Assembly (NCBI GenBank): GCA_035368605.1
Contig: DAOSLF010000006.1
Span: forward strand, 17,301 to 81,300
Direction: 5' to 3'
Length of the DNA: 64,000 nt
From: Candidatus Omnitrophota bacterium
Lineage (GTDB): Bacteria; Omnitrophota; Omnitrophia; Omnitrophales; Aquincolibacteriaceae
Shown: positions 2,227 through 50,068 of the stretch, one piece after another
How the letters are laid out: each line of letters begins with the position of its first letter
How positions within the stretch are numbered: position 1 is the first letter of the stretch
Made by a program: the position numbers and the translations under genes
Notes under the pieces: generated by a model
Told to the model about the DNA's origin: nothing
Seen by the model: only the letters and a program-made list of their open reading frames with translations
The model's database searches: none

Positions 2227-3636
2227 TCAGGCCCAAATCGGTAAATAACGGGCGTATTTACGCGACCCTCCGACTTTTTCATCGGGTTTGATGGCTCTGG
2301 TTTCGATGGCGGCGGCAATGATCTGCGAAATGATAGCGCTCTTGCTTTCCGGCTGGCGAAACCGCTCGCGAAGAGACTGGTTGGTCATGCGCTCGGCCAT
2401 AACCCATTTCAGGCAACAGTGCTGGTAGCAGGCACGGACGCGATCGTCGCGATCCATGGCCTCAAAACCCCGTGGTCCGAAGATGATAACGACCGTGCGG
2501 CGATGACTGGCCCGGAAATCCGGCGCGGGAAGCTGGTAAACCTCGGCTGCCTGAACGACTTTATCGATACCGCTGCTCTTCTCCTCGCAAATGCGCATCC
2601 GGCGCATGAGATCGGCGAGCCGCTCGTTGCGGGACTGGTAACCGTCGATGAAACGGTCCACGGGCACGATCGGTTCGCCGGGGTTCGAGATTTCGACACG
2701 ATCAGAGTAAATTTCCACCATCATGGATGCACCACCGATCAAAAAATCCTGGTGGACAAGCGCATTGGCAACGAGTTCGCGAATAGCGATTTCCGGGACA
2801 AGCTTTACCTCTTTGCGCAAGGCATCCTGGATGACTTCATTTTGAGGAAGCTGTCCCATGATGAATCGCACGAGTCCCTGAAAACCGACAGCGTAGCCTT
2901 TCGTACCGGGCTGGTCCAGCCTGGTCTCCATTTTGGATGTGCCGGTATAAACAACCACGCGGGGCGCTTTGCGGGAAATGTCCGCAAAATCCTGAAGATG
3001 CTTGGCCAGTAGCAGCGCACCTATACGGCGAATGGCATAACTGCCGTCAACCAAGTCTACAAGGCGTTCTTGCCGGAGACGGTCCAGCACGCCGGTCTGC
3101 TCCTCGGGATAGGGCAATTTGAGCAACTCGAAAAAACCCTGAGTGTCCAACCGTTCAACTACTTGTGCGGCATCCAGACCCGTGAGCGAGTGTCCTTCCA
3201 GCCAGTCCGGCTCGCCTTCGGCAAAAATTCTGCGCAACTGATCCTCACTCATGGGCTGGAGTTCCCGTCCGGCGCGCATAAAATAAGTGCCATCCAGGTG
3301 ATAGGCCGTGCCCAAAGGCCGGGAGGGGATATGAAATACCACAACGCGCCCGGCCGGGTGGGCAACGGCTTCGACATCCACGCGAAAGCCAAGAGTTTGA
3401 AAGAGTTTCTCTGCCATGCCAACGGGATCGTTGACGGCTGCCGTTCCAACGACGGCATGCGGCGGCTTGTCCGCTATACCAAACAGCATTTGCCCCCCGC
3501 CTTCATTCGCAAGCGCGACGCAGTATTTACAGAGCGTGCGATAATCGAATTGCGTTTTGGCTTCCTTGAACTCCAGACGTTGATGCTCGGATGGAGCGCT
3601 GCGTAACAAGTCGATTTGCGCGAAAGAGGTACTCAT
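2227..3636 (-). CDS. AlbA_2 (Schlafen-like) DNA-binding domain plus C-terminal HATPase-like domain protein, embedded in the type I RM operon
   Basis: 469 aa. The N-terminus resembles the AlbA_2 / divergent AAA fold; the C-terminus reads EIAIRELVANALVHQDF...EISNPG (HATPase_c_4-like). Its ATG overlaps the hsdM stop (ATGA). Confidence 0.65.
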   Translation of the reverse strand: MSTSFAQIDLLRSAPSEHQRLEFKEAKTQFDYRTLCKYCVALANEGGGQMLFGIADKPPHAVVGTAAVNDPVGMAEKLFQTLGFRVDVEAVAHPAGRVVVFHIPSRPLGTAYHLDGTYFMRAGRELQPMSEDQLRRIFAEGEPDWLEGHSLTGLDAAQVVERLDTQGFFELLKLPYPEEQTGVLDRLRQERLVDLVDGSYAIRRIGALLLAKHLQDFADISRKAPRVVVYTGTSKMETRLDQPGTKGYAVGFQGLVRFIMGQLPQNEVIQDALRKEVKLVPEIAIRELVANALVHQDFLIGGASMMVEIYSDRVEISNPGEPIVPVDRFIDGYQSRNERLADLMRRMRICEEKSSGIDKVVQAAEVYQLPAPDFRASHRRTVVIIFGPRGFEAMDRDDRVRACYQHCCLKWVMAERMTNQSLRERFRQPESKSAIISQIIAAAIETRAIKPDEKVGGSRKYARYLPIWA

Positions 3637-5957
3637 GTTTTTCCTTTCAACAGACCATCGAGAAGCCCCTCGGCTTCCTTCCCGATAGCCAGAATATCTG
3701 CCCGGATTTCGTCCAGTGTTCTTAACGGCTGTGGCTTGTAAAAATGACGCGTAAAAGAAATCTCGTAACCGATCCGGGCCGACTCATTGATCCAGGCGTC
3801 GGGCGTATAGGGTAGGACTTCGCGGCGGATAAAAGCTTCTATCCCGCCTTCTTCCAGAAGCGGTACCTGCTCCGTATCCCTCAAATCAGAGTCTGGTTCA
3901 TATTGGGCAATATGCTTTTTGCCGTCTATTGAGATTTCATATCGACCATAAAGCGGGGAGGCTTCGGCTTTCCCGGGCCTGAACAGCCTGGCGATAACCG
4001 GCGGAGCTGTTTCAACGCGCCAGCTTGCTGCGCGCAGGATGGTTTTAAGATTGGCAGCTCCAATTTCAAGATTCAGTTTTTCGAGAGCGTCGTTCACTCT
4101 AGATCGAAAAATATTATGGTCTTCGAACAACCCGTCTCCCAGTTCTTTCCCGAGAGATGTGGCAATTTCAACAAGTCTTTGGTCGCGTTCCCACGTCCTG
4201 GGATCGAGAAGCTTCTTTTTCTTCTTGTCAGAGAGCCCCTTCCCGGAAGATGCTTCCCCGTCCTCCGAGCCCTCTTCGTCGCTTCCCCATTCATCCAGTG
4301 CTTTTTCCAGCCGGGGTTTTACCTTGGAGAAGTCCCTGGAGAGAGCATCGCCAAACTGGCCGTAGAGACGCGAACGAATATCCTCATCTCCGGAGCTGAA
4401 GCGCAAGGATTCTATCGCCTTTGGCGTGATCCGGCTGTGAAGACGCAGCGGCCGTTCAACGGTAACCTTCCAATAACCAAAGGCCGTATTGGGAAAAATC
4501 CTGGATTGTTCTGTTTCCTTGAAAGAGAGGTATGTCTGGCATATGCTTTGAATATCTTCCTCGGCAAGATCGCAATTCTTCTTCCCGAGATTCTTGCGGC
4601 GGGGTTTGAACCACTGCGTGGCATCAATCAGTTGGACCAACCCCTTGCGGGAGTCCGGCTTTCGGTTCGTCAACACCCAGATATAGGTGGCAATGCCCGT
4701 GTTGTAAAAGATATTCAAGGGCAGGGCAATAATAGCCTCCAGCCAGTCATTTTCGATTATCCAGCGGCGGATGTTGGATTCACCCTGCCCGGCGTCCCCG
4801 GTAAAAAGAGACGAACCGTTATGGACTTCGGCAATGCGGCTCCCTAACGGGGTATCATGTTTCATCTTGCTCAGTTTACTGGCCAGGAAAAGAAGCTGTC
4901 CGTCACTGGACCTTGTGATCAAGCTGAAACCAGGATCATCTGCGTGGCTAATTATAAAACGAGGGTCCTTTATCCCGTCTTTTCCTCCCATGCGTTCAAG
5001 GTCTGTTTTCCAGCTTTTACCGTAAGGCGGATTTGAGAGCATGAAGTCAAATGATCTGGAGGGGAATCCATCCTGGGACAATGTGGACCCATACTTGAAA
5101 TTCTCCGCCTCCTCACCCTGCCCCTTGAGCAGGAGATCCGCCTTGGTAATAGCATAGGTTTCGGGGTTCACCTCTTGCCCAAACAGGTGTATGGCTACAT
5201 CTTTTTTGTGATCTTTGGCCAGTTTTTGAAGCACTTCTTCAGCGACGGTCAGCATGCCGCCCGTGCCGCAGGCTCCATCGTAAACAAGATAAGTGCCTGA
5301 TGTGATCTTTTCGGATACGGGCAGAAAAACAAGCTTCGCCATAAGCTCGACAACGTCGCGGGGCGTAAAGTGCTCTCCGGCTTCTTCGTTGTTCTCTTCA
5401 TTGAAACGGCGGATAAGCTCTTCGAAGATGGTCCCCATCGCGTGATTATCAAGACCCGGAAGTCGAACCTTTCCATCGGTATCCATGACGGGCTTGGGGC
5501 TAAGGTTGATTGTGGAATCCAGGAACTTCTCAATCAGATGCCCCAGAATGTCAGCTTCGATGAGTGTTTGTATTTGGTTGCGGAATTTGAACTTCTCAAG
5601 AATCTCCTGAACATTGGGCGAAAAACCATTCAGATAATCTTCGAAGTCGGCCTTCAACTGCTGTTGTTTTGCTCTCGCGCGGAGGTCCCTTAAAGTAAAC
5701 TGCGAGGTATTGTAGAAGGCTTGCCCGGAAGCCTGACGCAGGGCGGCGTCTTGATTGGTGATGCGAGACTTGTCCAACGTATTCCGCATTTCAAGAACAG
5801 ATTGTTTCGTGGGTTCCAGCAGCGCGTCCAGCCGCCGGATCACGACCATCGGAAGGATTACATCGCGGTATTTCCCTCTAACATACACATCGCGCAAAAC
5901 ATCATCCGCTATGCCCCAAATAAAGTCCGTGATCCAGTTCAGCTCTCCGTTAGCCAT
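3633..5957 (-). CDS. hsdM: Type I restriction-modification N6-adenine DNA methyltransferase HsdM, unusually long, with a C-terminal extension of about 250 aa
   Basis: 774 aa with an HsdM_N-like N-terminus and an NPPYG catalytic motif (LSNPPYGKSW). It has an acidic/Lys-rich low-complexity linker followed by an extra C-terminal domain. Confidence 0.9.
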   Translation of the reverse strand: MANGELNWITDFIWGIADDVLRDVYVRGKYRDVILPMVVIRRLDALLEPTKQSVLEMRNTLDKSRITNQDAALRQASGQAFYNTSQFTLRDLRARAKQQQLKADFEDYLNGFSPNVQEILEKFKFRNQIQTLIEADILGHLIEKFLDSTINLSPKPVMDTDGKVRLPGLDNHAMGTIFEELIRRFNEENNEEAGEHFTPRDVVELMAKLVFLPVSEKITSGTYLVYDGACGTGGMLTVAEEVLQKLAKDHKKDVAIHLFGQEVNPETYAITKADLLLKGQGEEAENFKYGSTLSQDGFPSRSFDFMLSNPPYGKSWKTDLERMGGKDGIKDPRFIISHADDPGFSLITRSSDGQLLFLASKLSKMKHDTPLGSRIAEVHNGSSLFTGDAGQGESNIRRWIIENDWLEAIIALPLNIFYNTGIATYIWVLTNRKPDSRKGLVQLIDATQWFKPRRKNLGKKNCDLAEEDIQSICQTYLSFKETEQSRIFPNTAFGYWKVTVERPLRLHSRITPKAIESLRFSSGDEDIRSRLYGQFGDALSRDFSKVKPRLEKALDEWGSDEEGSEDGEASSGKGLSDKKKKKLLDPRTWERDQRLVEIATSLGKELGDGLFEDHNIFRSRVNDALEKLNLEIGAANLKTILRAASWRVETAPPVIARLFRPGKAEASPLYGRYEISIDGKKHIAQYEPDSDLRDTEQVPLLEEGGIEAFIRREVLPYTPDAWINESARIGYEISFTRHFYKPQPLRTLDEIRADILAIGKEAEGLLDGLLKGKT

Positions 5958-8664: not shown

Positions 8665-9451
8665 GGAGTTTCACGAACCGGAATCCCTTCGCCCTGAGCT
8701 GGGGGATGGTCTCGCGAAGCAGGATCGAGGTCCGGGTTCCGGCATCGCTTGCGGAGAACGTCGCGATCGACCCCGCGGCCGCCCTGAGCAGGGCCCCGGC
8801 GAACTCACCCCGCGTCGAATTCTCAGGCCGGATTCCGGTACCGACCACGTCATAGCCGAGGGCCCTCGCGATCCTCACCGCGATGTCGTCATAGTGAGAC
8901 GGCGCCGACCTGAAAAAATGCGGCAGGGCGCCCGTGACCGCTTCGATCTTCCGCGCGTTCTTCTCGATCTCGGCAAACACCTCTTCCACGTTCCGGGTCG
9001 CCGGCGCATCGGCGCCGGTTCCGGGGGCCACGAGGCAGGAACGGGCCTCGAGACCGAGATTCGCGATCTCAAAGAGAGGGGTCGCCGCGATCCGCTTCGC
9101 CAGTTCCGGATTCTTTTCAAGCCAGATGCCGCTCACAAAGAACGTCGCGGGAACGCTTTCCTTTTCGAGAAGGTCCAGAAGAGCACTGTAGAACTCCCCG
9201 CCCGTGCGGCCGCAGGCATTGAAGGTCACCGCCATCACCTTATCGGAGCTCCGGATACGGGTCTTGACGCCGGGAACGAGAGGACCCGTTTCATGGGGCT
9301 TTTCTCCCGAGAATTCGAGAAGGATGATTTCTTTAAGAACCTTGTAATCCTCGGCCTCGGCTTCCGCGGGAAGAGCGTCGGAACGGGGAATGGGACCGGT
9401 CAGCGCCATCGATATGAAAAACCATGCCGTTACGATCGGTTTCAGGTCCAT
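8645..9451 (-). CDS. Polysaccharide deacetylase (NodB-homology domain), probably secreted
   Basis: 268 aa with an N-terminal signal-like hydrophobic segment and a NodB-type catalytic domain. Confidence 0.65.
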   Translation of the reverse strand: MDLKPIVTAWFFISMALTGPIPRSDALPAEAEAEDYKVLKEIILLEFSGEKPHETGPLVPGVKTRIRSSDKVMAVTFNACGRTGGEFYSALLDLLEKESVPATFFVSGIWLEKNPELAKRIAATPLFEIANLGLEARSCLVAPGTGADAPATRNVEEVFAEIEKNARKIEAVTGALPHFFRSAPSHYDDIAVRIARALGYDVVGTGIRPENSTRGEFAGALLRAAAGSIATFSASDAGTRTSILLRETIPQLRAKGFRFVKLRDYPLE

Positions 9452-9458
9452 AAGCTGG

Positions 9459-10049
9459 TCATTTTCTCCGGGGTTTTGCCCTCTTGAGTATCGGTTGTCC
9501 CGAACATTTTTTGAGCAGTCTCCGGAGCAATTCGACGGGAAGCCCGACCACGTTCGTGCAGGATCCCTCGATCTTCCGAACGATCTTCGGCCCCTCCTGG
9601 ATGGCGTAAGCGCCCGCCTTGTCGAGCGGGTTCACTTGCCGGAAATAGTCCCGGATGGTATCGCGGGATAATCTTTTGAAATAAACGCGCGTCCTGGCGG
9701 TCCCCGAAAAGGACCGGCCCGTTTTCAGGTCCCGCAAGACAACGCCGGTATACACCTCATGGGCCTTCCCCGAAAGGGTCGTCAGCATCCGCGTTGCCTC
9801 GCGCATCGTTCGCGGCTTTCCATAGACTTTCTTCCGCCACACCAGCGTATCGGCGGCGAGCACATAGCGGGCCTTCGCGGGAAGCCGGGCGCGGAGGGCC
9901 TTGCCGAAAGCGTGTTTCAGGACAAGCTCGCGAGGTCCGTGTCCGGGCAGGACCTTTTCCCGGTAGCGGCTCGGAACGCAGCGGAAGCGGAGTTTCATTT
10001 TTCGAAGGATCTCGCGCCGCCGCGCGGACCGGGACGCCAGATAGATCAT
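9459..10049 (-). CDS. maf: Maf-like nucleoside triphosphate pyrophosphatase (septum formation protein Maf)
   Basis: MIYLASRSARRREIL...AGAYAIQ. I place the start at the ATG that overlaps the glgE stop (ATGA); the ORF track extends it to 10091. Confidence 0.8.
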   Translation of the reverse strand: MIYLASRSARRREILRKMKLRFRCVPSRYREKVLPGHGPRELVLKHAFGKALRARLPAKARYVLAADTLVWRKKVYGKPRTMREATRMLTTLSGKAHEVYTGVVLRDLKTGRSFSGTARTRVYFKRLSRDTIRDYFRQVNPLDKAGAYAIQEGPKIVRKIEGSCTNVVGLPVELLRRLLKKCSGQPILKRAKPRRK

Positions 10050-12055
10050 CCGCCGGCCTGTTTCTTCAAAAGAAACACGTGGGCCGGACATGTGTGGGGA
10101 TCCAGGCGGACATAGTTACGGGAACCCTTCCAGTAATACTTCTCTCCCGTCAAAAGGTCCCGCATCTGATACGTCTGCCATTCCTCGATATCGAACTTCC
10201 ACACCGGCAGTGTCACGAAGTCTTCCTGGGGATGGAACGGATCGAGGTTTACGACCGTGATGATGATATTGGAAAGGTCCGGAGTCCTTTTCCCGTAGCA
10301 GAGGATCATGTCGTTCTTCGTGTCGTAGAACTCGAGATTGTCATAATCCTGGAGCGCGGGGTTCTCGCGACGAAGGCGGTTCACCTGCCCGACCAGCTCC
10401 TTGATGTTCCCCGGCCGGTCCCAGTCCCACACCTTGTACTGGTATTTTTCGGAATCGAGGTATTCCTCGGAACCCGGGGCCTTCGCGCGGTTCTCGCAAA
10501 GCTCGAAACCGCTGTAGATGCCGTAGGACGGAGAGAGCGTTGCCGCGAGGATCAACCGGATCATGAACGCCGGCCGGCCGCCTTTCTGCAGAAACTCGTG
10601 GAGGATGTCCGGCGTGTTGGTGAACAGATTGCCCCGGTAGTAGAGTCGCATCTCCGTCTGCGTCAGCTCCTCGAGGTACTGGCGGATCTCCCATTTGACG
10701 TTCCGCCACGTGAAATAGGTGTAGGACTGCGTGAACCCCGCCTTGGCCAGGTACTTCATGACCTTCGGCCGCGTGAAAGCCTCCGCGAAGAAGATCGCCT
10801 CGGGGTGGTCCTTCTGGACCTCGCCGATCAGCCAATGCCAGAAGCCGAGCGGCTTCGTGTGCGGGTTATCGATGCGGAAAATGCGGACGCCTTTCCCGAG
10901 CCAGAAGAGGATGATGCTCTTCATCTCGTCCCAGAGCTCGCGCCAGTGATCGCAGTGAAAATCAAGAGGGTAGATATCCTCATACTTTTTAGGGGGGTTC
11001 TCCGCGTAATGGATTGTCCCGTCCGGGCGGTGAAAGAACCACTCGGGATGTTCCTTCACGTAGGGATGATCGGGCGAGCACTGGAACGCGATATCCAGGG
11101 CGATCTCGATTCCCAGGTCGCCGGCTTTTTTCACAAAAAGCTCGAAATCCTTCATCGTCCCGAGATCCGGGTGAACGGACTTGTGCCCGCCTTCCTTGCT
11201 CCCGATGGCCCACGGCGAGCCGGGCGAATTTTTCTCCGGCGTGAGGGAATTATTGGGCCCCTTGCGTTTTGTGATGCCGATCGGATGGATGGGCGTGAGA
11301 TAGAGGACGTCGAACCCCATCTCCTTGATTTCGGGCAAGCGCCGGATGCAATCCCTGAAGGTCGCGCTCTCCCCTTCTTTTCGGCCCTGGGAACGCGGGA
11401 AGATCTCGTACCAGGACCCGAATTCGGCCTTCTTTCGGTCGGCCACGAGTTCATAGACCTCCGAATCGCTTTCAAGCCGCCGGAGAGGATATTTGAGAAA
11501 AAGCTCCCTGGTCGCGGACGGTTGCACGAGCTTCAGGACCTCCGCGCTCGCGCCTTCCGCGGCTTCAAGGGAGCGGATCAGTCCGGCGATCGTCCGGGCG
11601 TCCCCGCCTTTGACGAGCGCCGCGACTTCCTTCAGCAGCGCAAGACCTTCGAGGACCTCGCTCAGGACGGAGGCAGCGACGGGACATTTCTTTTCCACGT
11701 GGCGGAACCAGGACGCCACGGGATCCATCCACGCGACAATACGGTAAAGATAACGGGTATTCTCTTCCGCGCGGAACTCCCCGCGCCAACGGTCATTCTC
11801 GGCAAAGACCATCGGCGCTTCTTTCCACGCCTTTTCGGACTTTTTGCGGTACTGGACACAGGCCGCGATCACGTCATGCCCGTCCTTGAAGATGTCCGCC
11901 TCGACCTTCACAAGGTCGCCCGCGACGCATTTGACCGGATACCTGCCGCCGTCCACGGACGGCTGGACGTTCTCGATAATAATGTCCCGGATATCGCCGG
12001 CGGAATGGGCGATCGACCCGGCGCACGGCTTGGCGGTTTTTTTTCTGGGTTTCAT
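10046..12055 (-). CDS. glgE: Alpha-1,4-glucan:maltose-1-phosphate maltosyltransferase GlgE
   Basis: 669 aa with the GlgE N-terminal domains and a GH13 catalytic core (IFPRS..., YLTPIHP..., RIDNPH). Confidence 0.85.
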   Translation of the reverse strand: MKPRKKTAKPCAGSIAHSAGDIRDIIIENVQPSVDGGRYPVKCVAGDLVKVEADIFKDGHDVIAACVQYRKKSEKAWKEAPMVFAENDRWRGEFRAEENTRYLYRIVAWMDPVASWFRHVEKKCPVAASVLSEVLEGLALLKEVAALVKGGDARTIAGLIRSLEAAEGASAEVLKLVQPSATRELFLKYPLRRLESDSEVYELVADRKKAEFGSWYEIFPRSQGRKEGESATFRDCIRRLPEIKEMGFDVLYLTPIHPIGITKRKGPNNSLTPEKNSPGSPWAIGSKEGGHKSVHPDLGTMKDFELFVKKAGDLGIEIALDIAFQCSPDHPYVKEHPEWFFHRPDGTIHYAENPPKKYEDIYPLDFHCDHWRELWDEMKSIILFWLGKGVRIFRIDNPHTKPLGFWHWLIGEVQKDHPEAIFFAEAFTRPKVMKYLAKAGFTQSYTYFTWRNVKWEIRQYLEELTQTEMRLYYRGNLFTNTPDILHEFLQKGGRPAFMIRLILAATLSPSYGIYSGFELCENRAKAPGSEEYLDSEKYQYKVWDWDRPGNIKELVGQVNRLRRENPALQDYDNLEFYDTKNDMILCYGKRTPDLSNIIITVVNLDPFHPQEDFVTLPVWKFDIEEWQTYQMRDLLTGEKYYWKGSRNYVRLDPHTCPAHVFLLKKQAGG

Positions 12056-32259: not shown

Positions 32260-33579
32260 CTACTTGTTTTTCAAAATACCCGCCCGCTTCAGGATCGCCG
32301 GCACATTCCGCAGGTGACGGTCGTAGCTGAACGCCTCCCGGACCTCTGCGGGCGAAAGATGTTCGAGGATCCCCTTGTCGCTCAGCGCGACGTCCCGGAG
32401 ATTCGCCGATTCATCCTCCCAGATCCGTTTCGCGGCGGCCTGGACAAGCTTGTAGGCATCCTCGCGCGTGAGCCCCTTTTCGACGAGCTTGAGGAGCAGC
32501 CCCTGGGAAAAGACCATGCCACGGCTCGCTTCCATGTTCCTGAGCATGCGGTCTTTATTGACCTGGAGGTTCTCGATCACGTTTTGCATGAGCCCCAGCA
32601 TGTAGTCGAGGAGGATCGTGCTGTCCGGGAAAATGACGCGCTCGACGGACGAGTGCGTGATGTCACGCTCATGCCAGAGCGCGATATTCTCGAGCGCCGC
32701 GAGCGCGTTCCCGCGGAGGATACGCGCGAGGCCCGCGATGCGTTCGCAGGTGATGGGGTTGCGCTTGTGGGGCATTGCCGAAGACCCCTTCTGTCCTTTC
32801 GCGAAATACTCCTGCACCTCGTAGCATTCGGTCTTCTGGAGCCCGCGGATCTCGGTCGCGAGCTTTTCGAGCGACCCGCCGATCACGGCGATCACGGTCA
32901 TGTACTCGGCGTGGCGGTCGCGCTGAAGAATCTGCGTCGACACGGGCGCCGGGTTGAGCTTGAGCTTTTTGCAGACATAATTCTCGACCTTCGGGGCCAC
33001 GTTCGCAAACGTACCGACCGCGCCCGAGATCTTCCCGAAGCGGATGTTCTCCGTCGCGCGCTCGAAGCGCTCGAGGTTCCGTTTGAACTCGGCATGAAAA
33101 AGGGCCATCTTGAGGCCAAAGGTCACGGGCTCGGCGTGCACGCCGTGCGAGCGACCGACCATGAGGGTGTTCGCGTGCGCCCTGGCCCGGACGGCGAGGA
33201 TATCGATCAGCTTCCTGAGTTCCCGGTTCAGAACCCTGGAGGCGTCCACGAGCTGGAGCGCAAGTCCCGTGTCGAGGATATCGGAGGAGGTCAGACCGAA
33301 ATGGACATAGCGCCCGGCGGGGCCGACATGCTCCGCGACGTTCGTGAGGAACGCGATCACGTCATGGTTCGTGATCTTCTCGATCTCCTTCACGCGCGCG
33401 ACGTCAAATTTCGCCCTGGGGCGTACCTTGGCGGGAATCTCTTTGGGGATGTAACCGTAGCGGGCAAGGCCATCGAGTGCCGCAAGCTCCACCTCCAGCC
33501 ATTTTTGAAGTTTATTCTCTTCGGTCCAGACCTTGGCCATTTCGGGCCGGGTGTAGCGCGGAATCACAAAAAACCTCAC
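32260..33579 (-). CDS. purB: Adenylosuccinate lyase
   Basis: 439 aa with IPRYTRPEMAKVW and the fumarate lyase signature GSSAMPHKRNP. The true start may be a few codons inside. Confidence 0.9.
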   Translation of the reverse strand: MRFFVIPRYTRPEMAKVWTEENKLQKWLEVELAALDGLARYGYIPKEIPAKVRPRAKFDVARVKEIEKITNHDVIAFLTNVAEHVGPAGRYVHFGLTSSDILDTGLALQLVDASRVLNRELRKLIDILAVRARAHANTLMVGRSHGVHAEPVTFGLKMALFHAEFKRNLERFERATENIRFGKISGAVGTFANVAPKVENYVCKKLKLNPAPVSTQILQRDRHAEYMTVIAVIGGSLEKLATEIRGLQKTECYEVQEYFAKGQKGSSAMPHKRNPITCERIAGLARILRGNALAALENIALWHERDITHSSVERVIFPDSTILLDYMLGLMQNVIENLQVNKDRMLRNMEASRGMVFSQGLLLKLVEKGLTREDAYKLVQAAAKRIWEDESANLRDVALSDKGILEHLSPAEVREAFSYDRHLRNVPAILKRAGILKNK

Positions 33580-33585
33580 TATAAT

Positions 33586-33663
33586 TGGTGGCGCTAACGG
33601 GATTTAAACCCGTGTTTTTGCCTTGAGAGGGCAACGTCCTAGATCGGGCTAGACGATAGCGCC
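33586..33663 (-). tRNA. tRNA-Glu (anticodon CTC) with encoded CCA
   Basis: The minus strand reads GGCGCTATCGTCTAGCCCGATCTAGGACGTTGCCCTCTCAAGGCAAAAACACGGGTTTAAATCCCGTTAGCGCCACCA, with a D-arm typical of tRNA-Glu. Confidence 0.8.
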
Positions 33664-33792
33664 GCGAAAACCATACCGGATTATTCAACAGACACCGCAA
33701 AATCGCACCGAGCAAAATACACGATGCCCCAGACTTGCCTGATTGTTCAGCGAAAAACAGGTCATGGGAGGAAAAACACCAAAGGCGGCGGC

Positions 33793-33821
33793 ATTCTACC
33801 GATGGCATCCACCCTTGTCAA
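33793..33821 (-). promoter_or_regulatory. Near-consensus sigma70 promoter, probably driving the tRNA-Glu transcript
   Basis: On the minus strand: -35 TTGACA, 17-nt spacer, -10 TAGAAT, 13 nt past the stop of the upstream small gene and about 120 nt before the tRNA. Confidence 0.4.
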
Positions 33822-33833
33822 TCGAACGAACCG

Positions 33834-34157
33834 TTAATACCGGTCGTTCTTGATATCGTTGACATTCCGCTCGAGCAGTTCGACGCGCTTCGCGAGGAAA
33901 CGATTCTCCTGCTCCAGCATCTGGATGCGCCGCAGGGCATCCGAAAGACGGTCCTGTGTCAGGTCCTTCTGGATCGTCGTGTAATCATCGGACGCCGGGA
34001 CGCCGGACGCCGCCTGGACCGTGTCAGCCGCGACGGCCGCGGGGAGCAACGCCAGAACCATCAAGGCGCACACCCCGGTCACCTTCCCAAGTGCCTTTAT
34101 TCCGTCAGAGACAGAAAACGCTTCCGACGAAGCGTTTCCGCAATCGTGATTGTCCAT
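33834..34157 (-). CDS. Small bitopic membrane protein with a periplasmic coiled coil (107 aa)
   Basis: An ATG with a strong AGGAAGGA RBS. TM segment VTGVCALMVLALLPAAVAA. The C-terminus reads RLSDALRRIQMLEQENRFLAKRVELLERNVNDIKNDRY. Confidence 0.55.
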   Translation of the reverse strand: MDNHDCGNASSEAFSVSDGIKALGKVTGVCALMVLALLPAAVAADTVQAASGVPASDDYTTIQKDLTQDRLSDALRRIQMLEQENRFLAKRVELLERNVNDIKNDRY

Positions 34158-34318
34158 GAAATATCCTTCCTTTCATGCCTTGGCGCGAATCAAAAAGCCG
34201 CCCGTATTGAACCGGTCTCCAGCGTGCTCCACAGGGCGGCAGTATACCATATCTTGTATGAACGCCAAAAGCGAAACCTGGCCGTTTCCGCGCGAAAAAG
34301 ATAAGGAGAAACCCGGTC

Positions 34319-34339
34319 TCCAACCTACGAGGTTGGATA
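34319..34339. repeat. Left copy of the palindromic repeat TCCAACCTACGAGGTTGGATA
   Basis: A 21-nt exact match to the copy at 36738..36758, 15 nt past the xerD stop. It contains the hairpin CCAACCT-ACG-AGGTTGG. Confidence 0.6.
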
Positions 34340-34353
34340 GGTTCGCGGATTAA

Positions 34354-35280
34354 TCAGCCGCGCGGGTGGAACTTCGCGTGAATGGATTTCAGGCGGTTGC
34401 CGGAAACGTGGGTATAGATCTGGGTCGTGGCGATATTCGAATGGCCGAGAAGTTCCTGCACGACGCGGAGGTCCGCGCCCCGTTCGAGGAGATGCGTCGC
34501 GAACGAATGCCGGAAGGTATGCGGTTTGATGGGCTTCGCGATCCCGGCGCGCATCGCGTAGCGTTTAATCATCTGCCAGACATACTGACGTGTCAGCCCC
34601 GAGCCGTTCCGTCCGAGGAAGAAATGATCCGTCCGCGCCTTGATCTTTGAACGCACGCGCGCGAGGTAGGCTCGGCAGGCGTCGACCGCGACGCTGCCGA
34701 GCGGGACGATCCGTTCCTTGTTCCCTTTCCCGCGGCACTTGATGAAATGATTGTCCAGGTAAACGTTCCCGGCGCTGAGGCCCGTCACTTCGGAAACGCG
34801 CATGCCGGTCGCGTACAGGCATTCGAGAAGCGCCCGGTCGCGAATCCCGGCCGGTGTCTTCGGGTCCGGTGCCTTCAGGATCGCGTCCATCTCCTGCACG
34901 GTGAGGAACTGCGGCAGTTTCTTCCATTGTCTGGAAGACTCGAGCACGCTCGTCACATCCTCTTTCACGTACTTCTCGTGCGCGAGGAAACGGTGAAAAA
35001 GCTTGACCGAGACGAGCGCCCTCGCGACAGACGGGACCTCAAGCCCGCGGCGGCCCTCGGCGGCGAGGAACTTCAGGATATGCGCGCGGGTTATTCCCTC
35101 CCAGTCCGGCATCTTTTCCCGGCGGAGGAATCCCGTGTAATGATCGAGGTCGCGGCGGTAGGCGTCGAGCGTGTTCTGCGAGAGGCCTTTTTCGACGGCA
35201 AGGTAGTTCAGGAACTCCCCGATGAGGAAATGATTCCGGTCCCCGGGTTTTTTTTCGATCGCGGTTTGGGTATCCATCAA
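34354..35280 (-). CDS. xerD: Tyrosine recombinase XerD
   Basis: 308 aa with a C-terminal HTFRHSFATHLLERGADLRVVQELLGHSNIATTQIYTHV typical of XerD. Confidence 0.85.
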   Translation of the reverse strand: MMDTQTAIEKKPGDRNHFLIGEFLNYLAVEKGLSQNTLDAYRRDLDHYTGFLRREKMPDWEGITRAHILKFLAAEGRRGLEVPSVARALVSVKLFHRFLAHEKYVKEDVTSVLESSRQWKKLPQFLTVQEMDAILKAPDPKTPAGIRDRALLECLYATGMRVSEVTGLSAGNVYLDNHFIKCRGKGNKERIVPLGSVAVDACRAYLARVRSKIKARTDHFFLGRNGSGLTRQYVWQMIKRYAMRAGIAKPIKPHTFRHSFATHLLERGADLRVVQELLGHSNIATTQIYTHVSGNRLKSIHAKFHPRG

Positions 35281-35328
35281 AAAAATTATCGGCCACCGGA
35301 GCCAAACCCTAGAGCGCCGCCATCCCGG

Positions 35329-35352
35329 AAAAACGGGGTCAGACCCCGTTTT
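35329..35352. terminator. Bidirectional intrinsic terminator hairpin between the nuclease gene and xerD
   Basis: AAAAACGGGG-tcaga-CCCCGTTTTT, a perfect 10-bp stem whose ends are A5/T5 runs. Confidence 0.55.
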
Positions 35353-35382
35353 TCAGCAGGACCCCGGCCATCATTTTCTGTT

Positions 35383-36627
35383 TTATTCGCTCACTTTCAC
35401 GGCGAGCCCTTTTTCAATGAGCCAGCCGTTCAGGAACTTGTCTTCGCCGCTCTCGGCGTCGGCCGCAAAAACATCGGCCAGGTAGCGGTCGTATTTGTCG
35501 GACCTCATGGTCTTGATCGAGATTCGCGTGCCGGGCGGGAGAAGTTTTTCGACGAACCGCTTCGCCTCCGCGCCGTCCTTCGTCCCGATCTCGGGGGTAT
35601 CAATGCCCCTCAAACGAAGGGTCTGCGTCGTCGTGATCCCGAACCCGAGGTCGACCACCGCCTCGAGCGTGTCGCCGTCCAGAACGCGGAACACGTTGGC
35701 GTTGTACGTGTAGAGAAGCGTCGCGATGTTCGAGACCCGGGACTCGGGCACCACCTGGACCTCTTCGCCGTAGAAGGCGACAATATCCCCCTCCCTGAAT
35801 CCGCTCAGGTCGTCCCCCAGGACCTCGGCAAGCCTGAAATAATTGGAAAATCCGAGGTCGAGAGCGAGTTCGTCCTTGTAGGGACCTGCCTTGGCGCGAA
35901 TGATTCTGTAAGTTCCCGGTTGTCCGATGTCGAGAGGTTCCAGCGTCTTCGCGACGGCCGCCGGGGCCGGAGTCTGCTCTCCGCCCTCCGGTTTTTCTTT
36001 TGCCGTGACCGCTCGGATCTCCTCACGCAGGCGGTCCCGTGACCAGTTTTCCTTCTCCGCTTTGGCGGCAAGCGACTCGCGCTCCCCGGCGTCATTGACC
36101 GAGAGCAATTCCCGGTATTCCGACCAGGTCAATTTACCCGCATGCGGGCAAATCGGATAAGCTCTGGCGAATTGAAGCATATACCGGAGTTCGGTGCCGC
36201 TAATGGCAAGGTCCCCCGCGAGCCTGGACAGGACCTGCTTTCCGTATTCCGCCCGCTCCTGATGCTGAAGCACGTGTCGATCGATCAGCCTTCCGATCTC
36301 CCACGACTCGCGCACCCGCTCCTGTTCGACGGCCCGCGCGGCCCGCATCTCGCTTTCAAACCGGGCCCTGCGGATCGCGGTCACGAGTTCCCCGTACGTC
36401 GCGACCTTCATTTCAGACACGGTCTCCGGACCGGCCTCTGTCCCGGCCGAGGCTTTCCTGACGGTCTTCGCCTCCGCTTGTCCTGTGCGCCCGCCGGCTG
36501 TCCGGAGGGAGCTTGTCTGCGGCGAGCGGGTCGAATCCGTCGACGGGGCCGCAAAACTCACCGGCACGCACAAGGAAAGCAGAATGAACGCGACACTCAA
36601 CGTTTGAAATCTCCGGTTTTTTTCCAT
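35383..36627 (-). CDS. Secreted fusion nuclease: DUF1016_N (YhcG-like N-terminal domain) plus a staphylococcal-nuclease-like (thermonuclease/SNase) domain
   Basis: The start is placed at MEKNRRFQTLSVAFILLSLCVPVSFA (a signal peptide). The middle matches DUF1016_N (WEIGRLI...AEYGKQVLSRLAGDL...LRYMLQFARAYP). The C-terminus is SNase-like (FRVLDGDTLEAVVD...LRLRGIDTPE...). Confidence 0.75.
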   Translation of the reverse strand: MEKNRRFQTLSVAFILLSLCVPVSFAAPSTDSTRSPQTSSLRTAGGRTGQAEAKTVRKASAGTEAGPETVSEMKVATYGELVTAIRRARFESEMRAARAVEQERVRESWEIGRLIDRHVLQHQERAEYGKQVLSRLAGDLAISGTELRYMLQFARAYPICPHAGKLTWSEYRELLSVNDAGERESLAAKAEKENWSRDRLREEIRAVTAKEKPEGGEQTPAPAAVAKTLEPLDIGQPGTYRIIRAKAGPYKDELALDLGFSNYFRLAEVLGDDLSGFREGDIVAFYGEEVQVVPESRVSNIATLLYTYNANVFRVLDGDTLEAVVDLGFGITTTQTLRLRGIDTPEIGTKDGAEAKRFVEKLLPPGTRISIKTMRSDKYDRYLADVFAADAESGEDKFLNGWLIEKGLAVKVSE

Positions 36628-36722
36628 AAAGTCAGCCCCCGCCTTGATTGTTATCGGATTGTTATCGAAGTCTGTTACTGGATAAAACGACACCACAAAT
36701 CCCCGTTCCTTTTCCCGCGACC

Positions 36723-36771
36723 AATCCAACCTACCAATCCAACCTACGAGGTTGGATATGGTTGGATGGTT
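36723..36771. repeat. Right copy of the palindromic repeat, expanded: two direct CCAATCCAACCTA units followed by inverted GGTTGGAT(A/G)TGG units
   Basis: ccaatccaacctaccaatccaacctacgaggttggatatggttggatggtttgg. It shares the 21-mer with 34319..34339 and ends 4 nt before the ligA stop. Confidence 0.6.
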
Positions 36772-36774
36772 TGG

Positions 36775-39619
<2,845 letters not shown>

Positions 39620-42238: not shown

Positions 42239-42623
42239 CCACGAACCTCTCGGGTTGAAGAACAGACACGGAATCCCGGTAATACGCTGCGGGATCTTTC
42301 GAATGCCGTGGATTATATCACGAAACTTTTCCGTTTCCACGCCCGAGCGTCGTCAAATCCTGGGGAGGCGGGCCTTGAGCTCGGCGAGGATTTGCAATCC
42401 AACCTCTCTGTCCCTGCGTCGATCGTCTTTTGCGGGCACCGGACCTGCGCTTCCGGGGGCCGGTCCGCCACCGGGCCAGACACTCTCCGTTCCATCGCCG
42501 GTCCTGACAAACCCCGACCGGGACCTTGAACCCGTTCTGCTAGATCACCCTTTCGATCCGTTCATACAAGTCCTTCAGACCGCAGGGCTTCGGGATTTCC
42601 GTCATAACTCCGACCTCCCCCGG

Positions 42624-49831: not shown

Positions 49832-49908
49832 TGGTCGGGGCGGCGGGATTTGAACCTGCGACCTCTCGGTCCCGAACCGAGCGCACTACCAAACTGTGCT
49901 ACGCCCCG
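49832..49908 (-). tRNA. tRNA-Pro (anticodon CGG) with encoded CCA
   Basis: The minus strand reads CGGGGCGTAGCACAGTTTGGTAGTGCGCTCGGTTCGGGACCGAGAGGTCGCAGGTTCAAATCCCGCCGCCCCGACCA. Confidence 0.85.
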
Positions 49909-49980: not shown

Positions 49981-50004
49981 AAAACGCCCAACAGCGGGCG
50001 TTTT
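49981..50004 (-). terminator. Hairpin with T-tract directly after the degenerate tRNA copy
   Basis: AAAACGCCC-aacagc-GGGCGTTTT. On the minus strand the GC stem is followed by TTTT. Confidence 0.45.
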
Positions 50005-50068
50005 GCAGCGGGAACCTGCGACCTCCCGGTCCCGAACCGGGCGCACTACCAAACTGTGCTACGCCCCG
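50005..50068 (-). pseudogene. Degenerate partial copy of tRNA-Pro(CGG): the 5-prime 58 nt are conserved; the T-loop and 3-prime acceptor strand are missing or replaced
   Basis: CGGGGCGTAGCACAGTTTGGTAGTGCGCCCGGTTCGGGACCGGGAGGTCGCAGGTTCCCGCTGC. It is identical to the intact copy except for one compensatory base-pair change in the anticodon stem (U:A to C:G), then diverges after the T-stem. Confidence 0.5.

Follow-up and report, generated by a model that had tools for sequence, protein, structure and literature searches.

Repetitive extragenic palindromes (REPs) and their REP-associated tyrosine transposases (RAYTs) combine short palindromes at the 3′ ends of genes with a single-locus Y1 transposase gene that carries the same hairpins on both sides, as in the REPs and bacterial interspersed mosaic elements (BIMEs) of E. 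coli with YafM and in the REPINs of Pseudomonas. To our knowledge, such systems have been studied almost wholly in Proteobacteria and Cyanobacteria, whose REP sequences are specific to the individual lineage. Here we describe a 21-nt hairpin repeat, TCCAACCTACGAGGTTGGATA, which occurs twice in a stretch of 64,000 nucleotides from a Candidatus Omnitrophota bacterium (GCA_035368605.1, contig DAOSLF010000006.1, positions 17,301 to 81,300; hereafter the window) and brackets the genes of the tyrosine recombinase XerD and of a nuclease. The original prediction, made from the sequence of the window, had considered the repeats as ends of an integrated or excisable module, as a REP/BIME-like family or as shared terminators. 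We conclude, with a probability of about 80%, that the 21-mers are copies of a REP-like element tied to a RAYT encoded elsewhere in the same Omnitrophota genome.

The present system shares with the described ones the extragenic position of the palindromes at gene 3′ ends, the single-locus transposase gene between identical hairpins, the HUH and Y---NP motifs of its protein, and RAYTs as the best family and structure matches. It differs from them in that the hairpin has no GT[AG]G tetranucleotide at its 5′ foot, GTAG/CTAC being placed instead in the apical loop and stem; in a perfect 8-bp palindromic stem with a 3-nt loop; in a low observed copy number; in a 19-nt core that is identical across phyla, whereas classical REPs are lineage-specific; and in its hosts, which are Omnitrophota and members of the candidate phyla radiation (CPR) rather than Proteobacteria.

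The Hairpin Repeats in the Window

The two exact copies of the 21-mer lie at 34319-34339 and 36738-36758, both on the + strand, as had been reported. No further copy with three or fewer mismatches was found in the window, where 0 are expected by chance and none appeared in 100 shuffles. The 8-mer units ATCCAACC/GGTTGGAT occur on the + strand at 36724 and 36737 and on the − strand at 36750 and 36760, and additionally on the − strand at 34331.

The left hairpin (34319..34339, annotated without strand) is a single unit, whose 19-nt core TCCAACCT-ACG-AGGTTGGA at 34319-34337 is an exact match. The core folds into a stem of 8 bp with a loop of 3 nt, with −9.9 kcal/mol as RNA on either strand, and the left hairpin scores 33.8 bits (E = 1.5e-8) with the covariance model of the family. 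The right copy is expanded into an array of ~49 nt (36722..36770, likewise without strand), in which CAATCCAACCTAC is doubled on the left arm and GGTTGGAT on the right, the core hairpin at 36738-36756 being placed inside a second, outer pair of units. As single-stranded DNA the array forms one long interrupted hairpin of −19.3 kcal/mol on the + strand and −18.7 on the − strand (z = −6.1 and −5.4, respectively), and its covariance-model score is 43.4 bits (E = 7.9e-12).

The perfect hairpin, the nested array of direct and inverted units and, from the gene coordinates, the flanking of xerD and the nuclease gene all agree with what was originally described. Only the distances to the stop codons were off by one base: the left hairpin lies 14 nt 3′ of the xerD stop rather than 15, and the right 21-mer 16 nt past the ligA stop rather than 17, with the edge of the array 4 nt past the same stop. 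The partial 11-mer CAATCCAACCT mentioned near 42395 is present at 42395-42405 as a lone half-site; it lacks an inverted partner, escapes detection by the covariance model and is either a chance occurrence or a decayed half-site or relic. A covariance-model scan of all 64 kb with filters off gave no additional hairpin copies. An Rfam scan of 33000-39500 at E ≤ 1 returned a tRNA as its sole match and no family for the hairpin.

Dispersal of the Hairpin in Public Sequences

The 19-nt core, TCCAACCTACGAGGTTGGA, was scanned in one genome per species for ~185,000 species. The exact 19-mer was found in 19 genome stretches, where ~4 are expected by chance according to our own estimate from the size of the collection. 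The hosts are metagenome-assembled genomes (MAGs) of Candidatus Omnitrophota, Saccharibacteria, Berkelbacteria, Desantisbacteria and unclassified bacteria, with G+C contents from 35% to 55%. A scan of JGI and ENA metagenomes provided 73 more contigs, giving 92 stretches altogether and ~80 distinct sites after removal of duplicates. The collection of viral contigs gave 0 matches, and thus no link to phages is indicated.

Contigs other than the window were examined as pieces of 8-20 kb, and the gene contexts of hairpin sites come from a crude caller of open reading frames (ORFs). The copies are mostly intergenic, many of them 0-30 nt past the stops of unrelated genes (rpsG, fusA, radical-SAM, ligA and others), and over the 92 stretches this dispersal at unrelated loci near gene 3′ ends is that of a REP family. 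The few sites in long ORFs with non-complementary flanks (L011/L043/L070, L010/L029 and L039/L069) look like chance matches.

The conservation extends to the fold beyond the core. The stem is lengthened by Watson-Crick pairs of at least 2 bp in 72% of the copies, compared to 26% in randomly re-paired flanks, and by at least 5 bp in 27% compared to 1.7%. In an alignment of 61 sequences, the rows of which were pre-selected for at least two paired flanking positions, the six flanking pairs show 92 double-sided changes against 39 in shuffles, and the covariation score is 0.249 against 0.088, with none of 500 shuffles as high. The flanks therefore co-vary, as they differ in sequence from copy to copy yet lengthen the stem. 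Their consensus is aaCCnAAA-(core)-TTTnGGtt, in which the outer AACC...GGTT box recurs, and core plus co-varying lower stem amount to ~25-45 nt, a short palindrome as in REPs. The asymmetric loop (ACG or CGT) is found in mixed orientation relative to the upstream gene, and no strand asymmetry was observed either in G·T versus A·C mismatches or in the folding energies of the two strands. Full-text searching of the literature with the hairpin sequence, written as DNA and as RNA, gave no papers.

Two variations on the solitary hairpin were also observed. Back-to-back pairs, 4-7 nt apart, are found in L023 (1023-1067), L036 (10139-10180) and L074 (879-923); the two units have opposite loop orientation (ACG, then CGT) and the second is slightly degenerate (TCCATCC...GGTTGAA), an arrangement that recalls the doublets or REPINs known from other REP families. 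A subfamily from AT-rich metagenome contigs (L020, L021, L025, L064, L081, L086, L087 and L089) conserves more than the hairpin: ~25 nt upstream a box, TATAGCACTTAA/TATAACACTTAAG, similar to the −10 element of promoters, and TTTGAGAGGTT followed by G-rich GGTTGG repeats downstream. Perhaps the subfamily represents a larger conserved unit, or else a small transcript.

RAYT Genes Flanked by the Hairpin

Pairs of hairpins 0.7-1.0 kb apart always enclose the gene of an IS200-like Y1 transposase (Pfam Y1_Tnp). This is the case, with hosts in several phyla, in L002 (hairpins at 2946 and 3650, gene at 2974-3684), L052 (3271 and 4267, gene at 3540-4187), L006 (6028 and 6754), L058 (7956 and 8749) and L028 (1879 and 2611), the gene in the last being frameshifted. 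In L015, a Y1 gene stands directly before one hairpin, which follows 5 nt past the stop.

For all five proteins tested, the best NCBIfam model was NF047646, REP-associated tyrosine transposase, with scores of 58-84.5 bits, of which one exceeds the cutoff of 80 bits; the IS200 model NF033573 matched only once among the proteins tested (E = 5e-4). The sole PDB match of the hairpin-linked Y1 proteins is 4ER8, the TnpA_REP of E. coli (YafM). Their alignment shows a conserved HUH motif (PTHIH/PDHYH), GPLW[EQ], the catalytic tyrosine in RYIHLNP, and an SSY motif in the tail. The Y---NP pattern is the signature of class 2, that is, of RAYTs (PMC6006769). With HUH, Y---NP and the preference for RAYT over IS200 models, the hairpin-flanked Y1 proteins look like RAYTs and not like IS200 transposases.

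Among the described RAYTs, the motifs point to TnpA_Y1 subclass 2.1, which corresponds to the Group 1 RAYTs or TIRYTs of Bertels et al. The signature of this subclass is Y[IV]HLNP with SS and ~238 aa (Quentin et al. 2018, PMC6006769), and the hairpin-linked RAYTs resemble it by motif, sharing Y[IV]HLNP, W[EQ], the SS tail and a length of ~215-240 aa. They differ from it in the conserved hairpin that tightly flanks their genes and in the residue before HUH, which is T or D, not N.

More distant RAYT homologues, 49-55% identical to either the L002 RAYT or P0123 (the RAYT of the window's species, see below), are flanked by related hairpins: CCACC-TACGA/TCGTA-GGTGG in L117, ATCACC-TACGC-GGTGAT in L118, and CCTCACTT-CCG-AAGTGAGG, with the outer AACC...GGTT box kept, in L119 and L120. 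That distant RAYTs have related but different flanking hairpins supports protein-specific sites.

A RAYT in the Genome of the Window

A homology search with the L002 RAYT gave ~3,200 RAYT homologues, among them P0123, a protein 61% identical to the query, which is encoded in GCA_029553765.1, GCA_022705965.1 and ERZ27249273, all of them assemblies that also hold the locus of the window. The context of its gene is constant, with one fixed locus in 21 of 21 contigs of the window's species. In the contig piece L111, the gene lies at 10001-10660 in a REPtron arrangement, with upstream hairpins at 9855 (loop GTG, −146 nt, just past the upstream stop) and at 9958 (loop CGT, 24 nt before the ATG) and a downstream hairpin at 10667 (loop ACG, 7 nt past the stop). 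P0123 shares its MAGs with the window locus and has the identical 19-mer on both sides, as the cognate RAYT of a REPtron would. Since a RAYT with the same hairpin is present in the same genome, the 21-mers do not mark the boundaries of a mobile cassette with xerD. The reading as a REP/BIME-like family thus finds support in two observations, the dispersal after unrelated genes and the flanking of RAYT genes, including one in this genome.

In addition, a fourth exact 19-mer lies at 7085-7103 of L111, in frame within a continuous ORF of >3,277 aa, where it is translated as ...QPIQPTRLDMV.... It amounts to a REP inserted within a gene, as has been described for further families of REPs.

Proposed Mechanism and Points Against It

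The steps proposed here are drawn from the literature on E. coli TnpA_REP and IS608 (PMC3479197, PMC6006769). The RAYT, a domesticated HUH/Y1 transposase of IS200 type, would recognize the hairpin as folded single-stranded DNA and would nick or cleave and join near it on single-stranded DNA such as the lagging-strand template. By this activity, new hairpin copies could be seeded into intergenic DNA downstream of genes, and the right array may be a local expansion in which a 13-nt unit was doubled on either arm. In the 3′ untranslated region (UTR), the hairpin may act on the mRNA upstream of it, stabilizing or modulating it in the manner of E. coli REPs. More speculatively, the RAYT could peel out in trans any segment between two hairpins, for example nuclease-xerD.

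Several observations weigh against this reading. The canonical GT[AG]G is absent from the 5′ foot; the flanks are variable and GTAG/CTAC stands at the apex (CC-TACGA-GG), where the CCACC and ATCACC variants of the hairpin keep it as well. Judged by the loop, the hairpins that flank RAYT genes are direct in L002, L028, L052 and L058 and inverted in L006 and L111. RAYTs with the identical 19-mer are only 34-63% identical to each other, some of them being closer to RAYTs with other hairpins; the DNA site is far more conserved than the protein. The hairpin family may be of low copy number relative to classical REPs, with 6 sites within the ~85 kb examined of the window's genome, whose contigs the collection scans did not return, and a maximum of 4 exact 19-mers per scanned MAG. 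Furthermore, subclass 2.1 was described as having either no REP-like flanking structures or GGGG[AT][CG]A[CG] terminal inverted repeats (PMC6006769), and in the case of Group 1 RAYTs the flanking 16-mers are only modestly repeated (Bertels et al., PMC5581495).

What is atypical of the system is an apical GTAG and a core that is invariant across phyla; otherwise its behavior is that of REPs and RAYTs. A further proposition, to which we give somewhat less than an even chance, is that the hairpin represents an undescribed REP class of a subclass-2.1-like RAYT clade, widespread in ultra-small uncultured bacteria (Omnitrophota, CPR and Desantisbacteria), with the GTAG apex, not the foot, as the recognition determinant and with a core kept invariant by very strong protein-DNA constraint or by repeated transfer of RAYT and hairpin between phyla. 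Gene exchange between Omnitrophota and CPR has been reported (PMC12455944), which makes a horizontal spread of the hairpin plausible. No report linking RAYTs with Omnitrophota or CPR was found in the searchable literature, which is weak negative evidence, and a search on the assembly accessions gave no papers.

If this holds, the repeat family, whose nearest published RAYT subclass had been thought REP-free, would offer a clean system in which to study the reading of hairpin apices by Y1 HUH enzymes, and the hairpin could serve as a marker of gene exchange among co-occurring ultra-small bacteria. It would also call for caution in the binning and assembly of MAGs because of identical palindromes of 19-45 nt across phyla. 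For the annotation of the window the outcome is deflationary: xerD is an ordinary chromosome-dimer resolvase gene, and nothing suggests a mobile cassette.

Alternative Explanations

The hairpin might be an element of RNA level only, i.e., a shared terminator or an mRNA-stabilizing hairpin with no link to a transposase. Copies just past stop codons would fit, as would the stable stem of −9.9 kcal/mol; the stem is identical on both strands and hence an RNA hairpin would work in either orientation. E. coli REPs are themselves known to influence mRNA decay and translation. However, neither copy in the window is followed by a T-run in the sense of its gene, and the consensus terminator scan calls instead a separate terminator-like hairpin, GGAGACCGGGTTTCTCC then TTATCTTTTT, at 34305..34321 on the − strand, directly 3′ of the left REP in the sense of xerD. 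With its T-run, this hairpin (34321-34305) is probably the real xerD terminator, and shared terminators alone, the second alternative of the original prediction, are not supported. Moreover, a terminator would not need 19 invariant nucleotides across phyla, the hairpins flank RAYT genes upstream as well as downstream, and one copy is in frame within a giant ORF. A purely RNA-level element is therefore improbable, while an effect on RNA is compatible with the REP-like element as a secondary one.

It is likewise unlikely that the hairpin-tnpA-hairpin units of 720-1015 bp are active IS200-like mobile units and the solitary hairpins their footprints or derivatives resembling miniature inverted-repeat transposable elements. 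The units have the size of IS200, and IS200/IS605 elements share with them the hairpins on both sides of a Y1 gene, often direct, and a presumed recognition of single-stranded DNA; the direct orientation in four loci is like that of the left and right ends of IS608, and Group 1 RAYTs are the most IS-like of the RAYTs (Bertels et al., PMC5581495). Nevertheless, the gene is single-copy and fixed throughout the contigs of the window's species, solitary hairpins are far more numerous than genes, and the proteins match the RAYT model rather than NF033573. They also have a C-terminal extension and the motif Y---NP instead of the Y---Q of IS200 (PMC6006769).

The possibility that attracted attention to this locus was that of attL/attR-like direct repeats, between which a recombinase, XerD or a different one, would cut out the 2.4-kb segment of xerD and the nuclease gene. 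In its favor, the repeats around this tyrosine recombinase gene are identical and direct, and there is a tRNA-Glu gene at a distance of 650 nt. The excision reading has nevertheless become very improbable. XerD passes the equivalog cutoff of the chromosome-dimer resolvase family and does not come near the cutoffs of integrase models of integron or phage type. Its orthologues are so named across Omnitrophota at 73-79% identity (77-79% in the nearest species) and are syntenic; XerD identity declines in parallel with that of LigA, and in many relatives both genes are on shared contigs, to judge by equal lengths of the longest contig. By this comparison the orthologues are vertically inherited, unlike an element-specific recombinase.

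The window XerD was found at 100% identity and in the same gene order in GCA_002068945.1, GCA_022705965.1, GCA_029553765.1, GCA_035411025.1 and several ENA/JGI assemblies. Of the loci retrieved for the window's species, 14 include both hairpin sites, and in all 14 the sites are unchanged. The comparison of presence and absence in related strains, suggested with the module reading, revealed no polymorphism of the bracketed segment such as an att-bounded element would show, in at least 8 assemblies of the species. Near other hairpin copies, homologues of XerD were found only in L088, which is the window's own DNA, and the search for the nuclease and LigA gave only an unrelated SNase-domain protein (L024), a LigA relative (L075) and window DNA (L088); an association of XerD with the hairpin was accordingly rejected. 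Xer and integrase core sites consist of two 11-bp arms and a spacer of 6-8 bp, unlike an 8-bp palindrome with a 3-nt spacer.

A conserved gene order without the repeats had been named beforehand as evidence against a module, and it was found in a different species (L121, GCA_022705945.1, XerD 78%), which has the identical order adh_short-SpoU-acylphosphatase-Metallophos-ligA-nuclease-xerD-small ORF-purB-purC and no hairpin copy within 4 mismatches after ligA or after xerD. L122 keeps xerD-small ORF-purB, again without hairpins. One relative (P0009 contig) has ligA, a 115-aa ORF and the nuclease gene without xerD; in others a pair resembling a toxin and antitoxin comes after ligA, where L075 has a single hairpin and L109 a hairpin with a different apex; and L110 has no intergenic space after ligA and no hairpin. 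From the hairpin-free order of L121 together with these relatives, it follows that the order ligA-nuclease-xerD is ancestral and predates the hairpins, which were added later and independently at two 3′ UTRs. The bracketing of xerD and the nuclease gene is incidental: one copy lies at the 3′ end of the ligA transcription unit and the other at that of xerD.

A double-stranded operator, TCCAACCT-N3-AGGTTGGA, bound by a dimeric protein would suit the perfect 8-bp inverted repeat with 11 bp from center to center, but is hardly credible, as the sites follow genes and do not lie at promoters, and their flanks co-vary to lengthen the stem, which matters only for a folded single strand.

Resemblance to integron attC sites was considered as well, because ATCCAAC/GTTGGAT fit the R″/R′ consensus and the right array has a nested layout of two boxes. 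The attC sites measure 57-141 nt, with an R″-L″...L′-R′ layout and the R″/R′ consensus RYYYAAC/GTTRRRY. In comparison, the site described here is far shorter, 19-49 nt, and does not occur in cassette arrays; there is no IntI, XerD scoring 137.7 bits against the cutoff of 265 of the integron-integrase model TIGR02249. We judge the resemblance to be coincidental. Likenesses to a DnaA box, 16S helix 45, a G-quadruplex, a DNA uptake sequence and attC were dropped, as they were not conserved in other lineages or their defining features failed.

Neighboring Genes and Minor Observations

The genes ligA, nuclease, xerD, a 107-aa ORF (33834-34157), tRNA-Glu(ctc) (33586-33663) and purB are all on the − strand. 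xerD (34354..35277), the gene of the housekeeping chromosome-dimer resolvase, has Pfam Phage_integrase and SAM_1 domains and scores 367.4 bits with TIGR02225 against the cutoff of 329.6; it is outside the repeat element. ligA (36775..38814), the NAD-dependent DNA ligase gene that has the right array at its 3′ end, was assigned by Pfam, and its homologues are named LigA of Candidatus Omnitrophota. Both genes serve here as context, as does the nuclease gene (35383..36627), whose product has a hydrophobic N-terminus and the Pfam domains DUF1016_N and SNase.

The DUF1016_N domain of the nuclease is the N-terminal part of YhcG-like PDDEXK nucleases, and the staphylococcal-nuclease domain is at the C-terminus. 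The gene stays beside ligA in several Omnitrophota species, and in relatives a homologue adjoins ligA whether xerD is present (L121) or absent (P0009 contig). The exact protein sequence had no database record, owing to a start codon that differs between gene calls. The gap between the nuclease gene and xerD contains, at ~35325-35350, a symmetric hairpin, AAAAACGGGGTC-TGA-CCCCGTTTTT, flanked by runs of A and T. This resembles a terminator that works in both directions, in which case nuclease and xerD would be separate transcription units.

At the site after ligA, the relative L109 (CAZDVO01 MAG, LigA 79% identical) has the hairpin CCATCC-A-CGACT-GCGTA-AGTCG-GATTGG at ~9047-9076, just past the gene. 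Its outer ATCC/GGAT and CC/GG pairs resemble the element of the window while the apex is different, a hint of apex turnover at a site that stays fixed.

Elsewhere in the window, a truncated second tRNA-Pro(cgg) comprising about the first 58 nt lies at 49994-50068 on the − strand, 85 nt upstream of the intact gene at 49832-49908. The copy is not called by ARAGORN. It shows a compensatory change in the anticodon stem, is followed by a hairpin, AAAACGCCCGC...GGGCGTTTT, and could be a pseudo-tRNA or the relic of a rearrangement.

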